DNA from: a virus
Taxonomy: Duplodnaviria > Caudoviricetes
Virus record (IMG/VR): IMGVR_UViG_3300044852_000015
Span: 96,001 to 160,000 of that record
DNA length: 64,000 nt
Direction: 5' to 3' (one strand)
Shown: positions 34,028-37,047 of the stretch, one piece after another
Position numbering within the stretch: the stretch's first letter is position 1
How the letters are laid out: the number at the start of each line of letters is the position of its first letter
Translations under genes and position numbers: made by a program
Notes under the pieces: model-generated
What the model was told of the DNA's origin: nothing
The model's database searches: none
Seen by the model: only the letters and a program-made list of their open reading frames with translations

Positions 34028-34498
34028 TTAGCGCCGGACCTTCGCCAGAATGGCGTTGGTGATGCTCGGGGCAGCCTGCTCCGAAGAGCGACTGTAGATC
34101 CCCTTGCTCACCCAGTCCAGCGCCTTACCGTGGTGCAGGGCAACCAGATCAGCCACTTGGTTGTGGGTGACCTTCATTGCCGGCTCCTGGACACGCATGA
34201 GCATCTCCTCGCGAAAGGCGAGTGCGATGTTCTCATACTTCTTTTCGCCGTAAACACGGTCGTAAAGAATATTGCCCATGGTAACCCCAACGCTGACCAT
34301 ACCGGCGTCAGTCATCGGCAGCCGCTCCTCTTTGGCGATATAACGGATTGCCAGAGCAATCAGTACACCACGGCGAGAAGGCTGCTTGAACAAGGAGTCT
34401 GCAAATGCAGCGCCCTTATCCAAGTCGTTCAATTCCATACCCAAACGGCGAGCCCAGACGGAAAGGTTCTGGTGGGTAGCGGTTTTGTAAGTAGTCAT
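34028..34498 (-). CDS. Hypothetical early protein
   Basis: 156 aa; GGAG SD; first gene after an early promoter. Confidence 0.7.
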   Translation of the reverse strand: MTTYKTATHQNLSVWARRLGMELNDLDKGAAFADSLFKQPSRRGVLIALAIRYIAKEERLPMTDAGMVSVGVTMGNILYDRVYGEKKYENIALAFREEMLMRVQEPAMKVTHNQVADLVALHHGKALDWVSKGIYSRSSEQAAPSITNAILAKVRR

Positions 34499-34547: not shown

Positions 34548-34585
34548 ATTCACCAAAGTAATATATATCTGAGATTTTTTTAATT
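34548..34585 (-). promoter_or_regulatory. Early promoter
   Basis: TTAAAAAAATCTCAGATATATATTAC-TTTG-GTGAAT. Confidence 0.8.
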
Positions 34586-34599
34586 GGAATGTTTACACT

Positions 34600-34750
34600 A
34601 TGTTGTGAATACAGGCAATGTCAACATTGTCCGCAAGGGGGTGATCCAGCCTTAGTGTGTTCTCCGAATCCTTGGACTGCTGAGAAGCAAACTAAAAGGG
34701 ATTCACGGCTGCCTGTGTTCGCCCGTCCTTCGGGGCGGGCTTTTATGCCC
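34600..34750 (+). ncRNA. Candidate stand-alone structured small RNA (about 145 nt)
   Basis: 13-bp closing helix 34605-34617/34710-34722 with G-U pairs, GCAA and GAGA tetraloop hairpins, cUUCGg terminator plus U-tract, TATG at the 5' end. Confidence 0.6.
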
Positions 34751-34792
34751 AAAAAAAAAGAGGGTGTGTAACCCTCTCTCTTTCTTTATTAC

Positions 34793-35164
34793 TTACGAGT
34801 GTCCCCCATGTTTCTTCAAAGCCGCCGTTACCAAGGCGTTCTGACGAGTGGTGTCTTCGGTCATGAGTTTAAGTAGAGACGGGCTGGCTTTAACCAATGG
34901 GCTCATCTCCATCTCAAACCGACCACCCTTACGAATGTGCAACACTCCGAGCTGGTGACCGAATTCAATGCTAGAGAATTCAATGAAATCTCCCTCGTTA
35001 CAATAGCTAATAGCCAACTGTAACATCCTTGGCATGGCGGTATCGAAGTAACCGTAAGTCCGCACCATGATGATGTCTTTGGATTTACCGCGATACATGG
35101 TAGCAACAACGCGGCGGCGGTGTGGGCTGTTCAATTGGTCGAGGATTTCTTGCGCGGTAGCCAT
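34793..35164 (-). CDS. Hypothetical protein
   Basis: 123 aa, TCCTTAGAAGGAA leader. Confidence 0.7.
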   Translation of the reverse strand: MATAQEILDQLNSPHRRRVVATMYRGKSKDIIMVRTYGYFDTAMPRMLQLAISYCNEGDFIEFSSIEFGHQLGVLHIRKGGRFEMEMSPLVKASPSLLKLMTEDTTRQNALVTAALKKHGGHS

Positions 35165-36600: not shown

Positions 36601-37047
36601 TTAATAAAGGATGATGCTCACGGGTAACGGGGTTTCCACCAAGTGCTTCTCTACCAAAGGCTTGAAGTTCTTGAAGTAGTCCAGTTGACCTTGACCACAC
36701 CCTAATGCTGGAATGCCCAGTTCGGTGATCCCCAGCTCTTCGTAACGAGCCACCAAGTCTTCGAAGCCTGCACTCAGGTACTCTTCTTTACTGGGGTTGG
36801 CGAAGTGTTCCTTCGTCGGAAACAGTAAGACTTGCTGACAGGAATCTGGAATGGGGTAAACCACAAGCTTACCCACATCCAACTGCTTGGTCTTCAGAGC
36901 CACCTGATAGAACGCCAGAAGGCCAGGAGTCCTGTACTTAAAAGCTGCGGCCAACCCGTTCCCGAGTGTACCCCAGGTATTGACTGGACAGGCTACCGTT
37001 TGCAGCCCACAACTAAAGAGGGAGCCCTCACCTTCGAACACGATCAT
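36601..37047 (-). CDS. Macrodomain protein, DarG/TARG1 (Poa1p-like) class ADP-ribosylhydrolase
   Basis: GSLF, CPVNTWGTLGNGLAAAFK, LLFPTKEHF, IPALGCGQGQLDY. Confidence 0.85.
   Translation of the reverse strand: MIVFEGEGSLFSCGLQTVACPVNTWGTLGNGLAAAFKYRTPGLLAFYQVALKTKQLDVGKLVVYPIPDSCQQVLLFPTKEHFANPSKEEYLSAGFEDLVARYEELGITELGIPALGCGQGQLDYFKNFKPLVEKHLVETPLPVSIILY

Follow-up and report, generated by a model that had tools for sequence, protein, structure and literature searches.

Synthetic anti-16S oligonucleotides take subunits out of initiation by pairing with the anti-Shine-Dalgarno (anti-SD) sequence, which is an artificial intervention, and box H/ACA guide RNAs, which are directed at rRNA, carry two antisense segments that flank an internal hairpin. 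STAB-SD is an established mechanism, described for the cry3A mRNA of Bacillus thuringiensis, in which a short cis element in the 5′ UTR, an SD-like sequence without a start codon, pairs with the 16S 3′ end and blocks RNase J1 (PMC4113751). RNAs with rows of SD-like motifs, which are also artificial, deplete free 30S subunits by an anti-SD pairing that removes them from initiation, and inhibit the growth of E. coli (Mawn 2002, as summarized in PMC3986360). Among ribosome-associated ncRNAs, the archaeal small RNA Val-tRF acts on the small subunit itself; it is a tRNA fragment at the decoding site, and it is neither viral nor a long antisense to the 16S tail (PMC11009984). Our literature search found no described natural trans-acting RNA gene that pairs with the 16S 3′ tail, and no description of the RNA reported here.

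This RNA lies in a window of 64,000 nucleotides (the whole stretch of DNA that was analysed) from a 238-kb uncultured phage, which has a phiKZ-type RNA polymerase subunit with only ~40% identity to any isolate. Fold, homologs and covariation predict that positions 34602-34744 (plus strand) are an unannotated folded RNA gene found in numerous Pseudomonas jumbo phages, phiKZ among them, ~143 nt in length with its terminator. Conservation is highest in a stretch complementary to the 16S 3′ end, a feature that had been missed in the original prediction and that points to the host ribosome as the target.

Layout and fold of the predicted RNA

The RNA is encoded on the plus strand in the gap between two minus-strand genes, and it stands alone in this way, with both neighbours on the opposite strand, in the window and in PA1C. 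A TATG late-promoter element at 34599-34602 (+) predicts a start at G34602. TATG is kept in most homologs and appears as TATAG in some, with variable preceding bases; phiKZ late promoters have TATG at their end (supplement to bioRxiv 10.1101/2023.10.13.562163). The unit is closed by an intrinsic terminator at 34721-34744 (+) with an 8-bp stem, a UUCG loop and U4. Its stem covaries in homologs; among relatives with a downstream gene, some have only a weak U tract. The RNA thus has a terminator of its own, as had been proposed, separate from that of the convergent gene (34793-35164) at 34751-34777 (-), which is seen in the sequence and whose stem, listed by the terminator search, differs in L001 and L004 with pairing kept. 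This convergent gene (minus strand, 123 aa) has isolate homologs only in the Pseudomonas phages PaBG and Lana, which may be taken as a hint at the host. Upstream of the RNA, and not part of it, an early-type promoter core TATATTAC at 34558-34565 (-) is predicted to drive the divergent gene 34028-34498. The core is found in 12 copies with common flanks in the genome, and a similar multi-copy motif is found in Erwinia and Salmonella jumbo phages; the label "early" is taken from phiKZ. Elsewhere in the window, 36601-37047 (-) encodes a macro-domain protein (PF01661, E = 1.4e-9).

Folding of the plus strand gives -57.9 kcal/mol (z = -2.9), a value equalled by one of 200 shuffles, and the minus-strand fold is weaker (z = -1.6). 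Every sequence quoted in the original prediction was found at the position given for it. In P1, 34609-34614 (+) pairs with 34713-34718; five of the six pairs show two-sided changes and 93% of the alignment cells are paired. Of the longer, 13-bp closing stem that had been proposed, homolog comparison upholds only the inner 6-8 pairs; those further out share positions with the terminator and are disrupted in homologs. The P2 hairpin (34615-34630, +) varies in length within the family, with 98% of cells paired and two-sided changes in two pairs, and the proposed CAATG/CATTG hairpin is confirmed by comparison of homologs. Segment 1 (34635-34651, +), a 17-nt complement of the 16S rRNA 3′ end with one G-U pair, is followed by a linker (34652-34665, +) whose 3′ end masks three G's of segment 1. 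These masking pairs are present in 77 of 78 cells, with one-sided changes only. The long arm P5 (34666-34704, +) with its GNRA cap at 34682-34685 was correctly anticipated: compensatory, pair-keeping changes are found in close relatives, all three cap pairs change on both sides family-wide, and the loop variants GAGA, GUGA, GGGA and GCGA differ only at the N. Segment 2 (34705-34714, +) is a 10-nt complement of 16S nt ~1503-1512 with one G-U pair.

Two other helices were not retained. A proposed TCC-GCAA-GGG hairpin has a pairing probability of 0.02-0.06 in the window and no two-sided change, and one of its pairs is broken in 13 of 26 members. An internal helix CAGCC/GGCUG (77% paired, no covariation) is only apparent, because segments 1 and 2 match the two strands of helix 45. 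ARAGORN called no tRNA or tmRNA on the RNA, in agreement with the claim that it is not a tRNA. Nor does it match a family in Rfam 15, which gave 0 matches at gathering score on the window (by E-value only chance-level ones, the best with 18.9 bits vs a cutoff of 99) and none on the RNA at homolog loci L203, L224, L244 and L262. No credible ORF had been expected, and the sole ORF across the RNA (34589-34771, 60 aa) loses its frame through 1-nt insertions in L004 and L079, two of the homologs, and is therefore not a conserved gene.

Homologs, neighbours and transcription

A search with the neighbouring 123-aa gene yielded 21 loci, six of which, in close uncultured relatives, carry the RNA at 87-95% identity; further close copies came from a metagenome scan and from look-ups via the downstream protein. 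The RNA core is more conserved than the neighbouring gene (90% vs 77-79% in the three most distant loci), and the invariant core of ~60 nt among close homologs contains 34635-34651. A 17-mer scan of viral contigs gave 65 matches. Six of these are known close copies, and nine more, several of them in 170-325 kb phages, have the whole layout, namely TATG/TATAG, closing stem, hairpin, segment 1, linker, GNRA-capped arm, segment 2 and terminator. One of the nine is PhiPA3, from which BLAST led to 60 Pseudomonas phage records including phiKZ, 201phi2-1, PA1C and Viktualia; DT01 was reached by BLAST from another of the nine. Model R1, built on close copies, is too narrow to recover phiKZ-type members. 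Model R2 found Noxifer, which was outside the training set (E = 1.9e-8), and in phiKZ it matches only 212855-212970, where the homolog lies between PHIKZ203 and PHIKZ204. The diverged copies are accordingly those of phiKZ, PhiPA3, 201phi2-1, PA1C, DT01, Viktualia and Noxifer.

Every isolate carrying the RNA infects Pseudomonas, and the named hosts of family members are all Pseudomonas, with a single 16S tail sequence. No match was obtained when the window RNA was compared by BLASTn with isolated phages, with E. coli genomes and with 15 genomes that have a neighbouring gene in common. Under strict filters, R2 found nothing in 18 other isolates (phages of Enterobacterales, Ralstonia, Xanthomonas, Burkholderia and Vibrio, as well as EL, OBP and PaBG) or in G001-G015 except one chance-level match. 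A lookalike on the opposite strand in Erwinia phage AH06 was rejected as chance level (E = 8.4).

The mean column identity of the 26-member alignment is 67%. Across P1, P2, the masking pairs and the cap, 92.8% of cells are paired and 10 pairs show two-sided changes, counts that leave out the P5 arm, which the MAFFT alignment placed out of register. The covariation score is 0.454, whereas shuffles score 0.222 ± 0.015 and slid controls no more than 0.10; covariation counts are not to be read as p-values, because relatedness inflates them.

The neighbours of the RNA differ among phiKZ, PhiPA3, PA1C and DT01. The gp297-like gene that follows the terminator in most close relatives (L003:3400-3903, minus strand, and homologs) has 130 representatives with an RQCG motif and no Pfam match, and its model appears to resemble a single stand-alone RecA-like helicase domain (pLDDT 65, Foldseek E ~5e-4). 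This family is often found beside tRNA genes, as in phiKZ, Noxifer and Moabite. Near the gp297 homolog of AH06 we noticed an unannotated hammerhead-like core and tRNA-like pieces (L066 ~2310-2380 and 650-730). In phiKZ, the ncRNA candidate 3′UTR_PHIKZ298 (PMC8545117, PMC10914365) resembles the window RNA in its ~110 nt, its TATG start, its hairpin end and its position ahead of PHIKZ297, a homolog of which follows the window-type RNA in most close relatives. Unlike the window RNA, it has no 16S-tail complement, and it gives no match to model R1 (best E 3.5 on L065). Orthology via the gp297-like neighbour was rejected, since this neighbour is interchangeable; the actual phiKZ homolog is at the other site given above. 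Inspection by eye suggests that 3′UTR_PHIKZ298 (L065:986-1097, minus strand; phiKZ 270595-270485) might form a double pseudoknot, with each of its two hairpin loops able to pair with the 3′ strand.

A plus-strand transcript end has been mapped in phiKZ at 213001 by a long-read study, with the start not assigned, and this end coincides with the terminator of the homolog. Among the phiKZ ncRNA candidates, the homolog goes unmentioned in the available parts of PMC10914365 and bioRxiv 10.1101/2023.10.13.562163. All four environmental runs, including RNA-labelled ones, yielded contigs, which cannot show a discrete RNA: those of X1 and X6 also span the flanks and may be DNA, that of X5 spans the promoter region, and X10 has one adapter-bounded insert at 34596-34731, at a depth of ~5, that starts 6 nt ahead of the predicted start. 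None of X1, X5, X6 and X10 was counted toward expression, which fits a rival account in which the locus makes no functional RNA and is a DNA site or a chance intergenic structure. However, G-U interchange and GNRA variation make sense only in a plus-strand RNA, and the excess of covariation over shuffles and the mapped phiKZ transcript end also make such an account highly implausible. We infer that the RNA is expressed in the window's phage and that its timing is late.

A 10-nt match to the ribosome-binding site of the neighbouring gene, which could have indicated an antisense action on that gene, was rejected; it is present in the window and lost in L003, L010 and L062. Taken together, homologs, covariation, promoter, terminator and the lack of an Rfam match agree with the original prediction of an undescribed, stand-alone, probably late ncRNA with a multi-way junction. 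The roles suggested with it (protein decoy, antitoxin mimic, packaging or nucleus-associated RNA) found no counterpart in these data.

Complementarity to the 3′ end of 16S rRNA

Segment 1 pairs with 16S ~nt 1525-1541 (E. coli numbering; L127:394-410), a stretch that takes in the anti-SD together with the base of helix 45. For segment 2 the partner is the 5′ strand of this helix (L127:372-381), and the linker can pair with the helix 45 loop; the 16S reference, L127, is Pseudomonas by Rfam and may not be the host's own. The longest duplex against 3.3 kb of Pseudomonas rRNA is 17 bp, located at the 16S end, and the best in 23S is 10; the corresponding value in shuffles is 10.1 ± 1.2 (maximum 14, n = 60). 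The cofolding gain is -29.5 kcal/mol, vs -3.5 ± 2.1 in shuffles and -2.8 ± 3.0 in 128 other rRNA windows, in energies that leave out ribosomal proteins and the packing of helix 45. For phiKZ, PhiPA3 and L224 the gain ranges from -22.7 to -25.1, and in L224 one other rRNA window is nearly as good (-21.9). In the cofold of the window, the loop region of helix 45 is a further possible partner of linker positions 34659-34665; this pairing is weak or absent in PhiPA3, PA1C and phiKZ.

Segment 1 is unchanged in 18 close loci that were recovered via flanking proteins and not via the RNA. Among the 26 members, 14 consecutive columns of segment 1 are invariant and 441 of 442 cells pair with 16S; the deviations are three A to G and one C to U, all wobble-compatible, and one terminal mismatch. 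Noxifer has A instead of the wobble G in each of the two segments, together with two C to U changes; all of these keep the pairing, and one terminal mismatch is present as well. The G at the wobble position in other members is explained by its pairing with the linker. Segment 2 is less strictly kept across the family, and in 201phi2-1 and L257 it is degenerate. Exact segment-1 search yielded nine of the diverged members and searches including segment 1 the remainder, and the invariance of segment 1 among them is therefore partly circular. Non-circular support comes from the protein-found close loci, from the architecture outside segment 1 and from the direction of the few changes. These results suggest that the RNA very likely pairs with the 16S tail in some role.

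Segment 1, linker and segment 2 come in the order in which a reverse complement of the final ~42 nt of 16S would place them, except that the long arm separates the linker from segment 2. Such an order is expected from capture of part of an rRNA operon, and the conserved fold with its GNRA cap would suit a protein-binding, structural or antitoxin-like RNA whose 16S match is a capture relic or a mere stabiliser of the RNA. A relic would decay, yet it is the stems that vary freely and not the 16S-matching stretch, and no antitoxin or decoy family in Rfam matches the RNA; we regard this explanation as quite improbable.

The pairing could also serve in cis, as an orphan SD similar to STAB-SD, with 30S loading stabilising or enhancing the read-through mRNA of a downstream gene and the window copy being a leftover after gene loss. 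Such a role is consistent with the gp297-like gene behind the terminator in most close relatives, with the weak U tract in some, and with the precedents of STAB-SD (PMC4113751) and of the many prematurely terminated leaders of phiKZ (PMC10914365). As in STAB-SD, complementarity to the 16S 3′ end is found together with the absence of a start codon at SD distance: no conserved start codon lies 4-13 nt behind the G-run, and a GTG at +13 occurs in the close clade only, in a frame broken by indels. However, the terminator separates the segment from any gene, and the 5′ UTR position of STAB-SD is not found in the window, L001, L004, L059 and PA1C, where the terminator is followed by no same-strand gene and the RNA is still kept with pair-keeping changes. 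The downstream gene is moreover swapped: its proteins in L003 and L052 share 45% identity, although the two RNAs are nearly the same. STAB-SD works against RNase J, on which, to our knowledge, Pseudomonas aeruginosa does not rely. A cis role is on these grounds improbable.

Complements of the 16S tail were also seen in other viral sequences. A second, AT-rich family on smaller viral contigs has a perfect 17-nt complement in an intergenic gap (L205:2958-3100, L207, L208, L210-L212, L214, L219, L225, L228, L236 and others), within a conserved, apparently folded stretch that is unlike the window RNA and has no Rfam match. Apparently non-coding elements in Goslar (L304; NC_048170 ~87361, minus strand) and PaBG (L306; NC_022096 ~235221, minus strand) consist of a hairpin, a 12-nt 16S-tail complement, a masking CUCC stretch, a long arm and a terminator; as they were missed by R2, they may be distant relatives or convergent. 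The viral contigs L209, L220, L230 and L260 carry a 16S-tail complement that ends in CCAACC, with no ATG behind.

Possible action on the 30S subunit

The reading that we favour, with a probability of roughly 0.6, is that of a late, self-masked antisense RNA that binds the 30S subunit and blocks or titrates initiation, by which the phage probably grips host ribosomes directly. The small folded RNA would be made late in infection, and its task would be to pair with the host 16S 3′ end. While it is free, its complementary stretches would be partly hidden in its own helices. On the 30S, the open part of segment 1 would pair with the single-stranded anti-SD tail and zip up to 17 bp; where helix 45 is loose, in subunits that are free, inactive or immature, the remainder of this helix may be taken over by segment 2 together with the linker. 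With no start codon in reach, the 30S would be held in a dead-end state, and SD-dependent initiation would be lowered or re-timed. The secure element of this model is the 12-nt free tail; full opening of helix 45 in the mature subunit is doubtful. Plain inhibition would also cost the phage, because its mRNAs use SD motifs too.

KsgA, Era and RbfA act on the 16S 3′-end region during 30S maturation. Pairing with the tail might shield or process it, with the RNA acting against host abortive-infection nucleases, blocking 30S maturation or guiding an enzyme of the phage or the host to the tail; the anti-SD and helix 45 would be protected, or the RNA would be a two-armed guide with the long arm between its arms. 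The complementarity is not confined to the SD-binding bases but reaches the two strands and the loop of helix 45, beyond the needs of a decoy, and two segments around an internal hairpin have a guide-like geometry. A protein could be bound to the conserved GNRA-capped arm, and the phage depends on an intact anti-SD for its own messages. Initiation would, however, already be stopped by the 17-bp duplex on the anti-SD, and no partner gene co-travels with the RNA, the neighbours being different in the window, phiKZ, PhiPA3, DT01 and Viktualia. We therefore consider shielding or guiding unlikely, though less so than a cis role, and retain 30S sequestration as the preferred reading.

Compared with STAB-SD, the window RNA is a separate promoter-to-terminator unit, with 17 nt plus two segments into helix 45, masked in a conserved fold, and it frequently lacks a downstream gene. 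In contrast to box H/ACA RNAs, it forms long duplexes, has no kink-turn and no H or ACA box conserved in alignment A8 (as judged by eye), and belongs to a bacterial host without guide machinery. We lean towards regarding it as a virus-encoded antisense RNA gene that strand-invades the anti-SD and helix 45 and inactivates, protects or marks the 30S, and as a single family within a broader class of phage RNAs that bind the 16S tail. This proposal is testable at once, because the RNA is present in phiKZ, PhiPA3 and 201phi2-1, for which knockdown tools exist and gradient and transcript data are public. If true, it would represent a new viral route to control host translation, a probe of helix 45 accessibility in living cells and a natural counterpart of the anti-ribosome antisense oligonucleotides.
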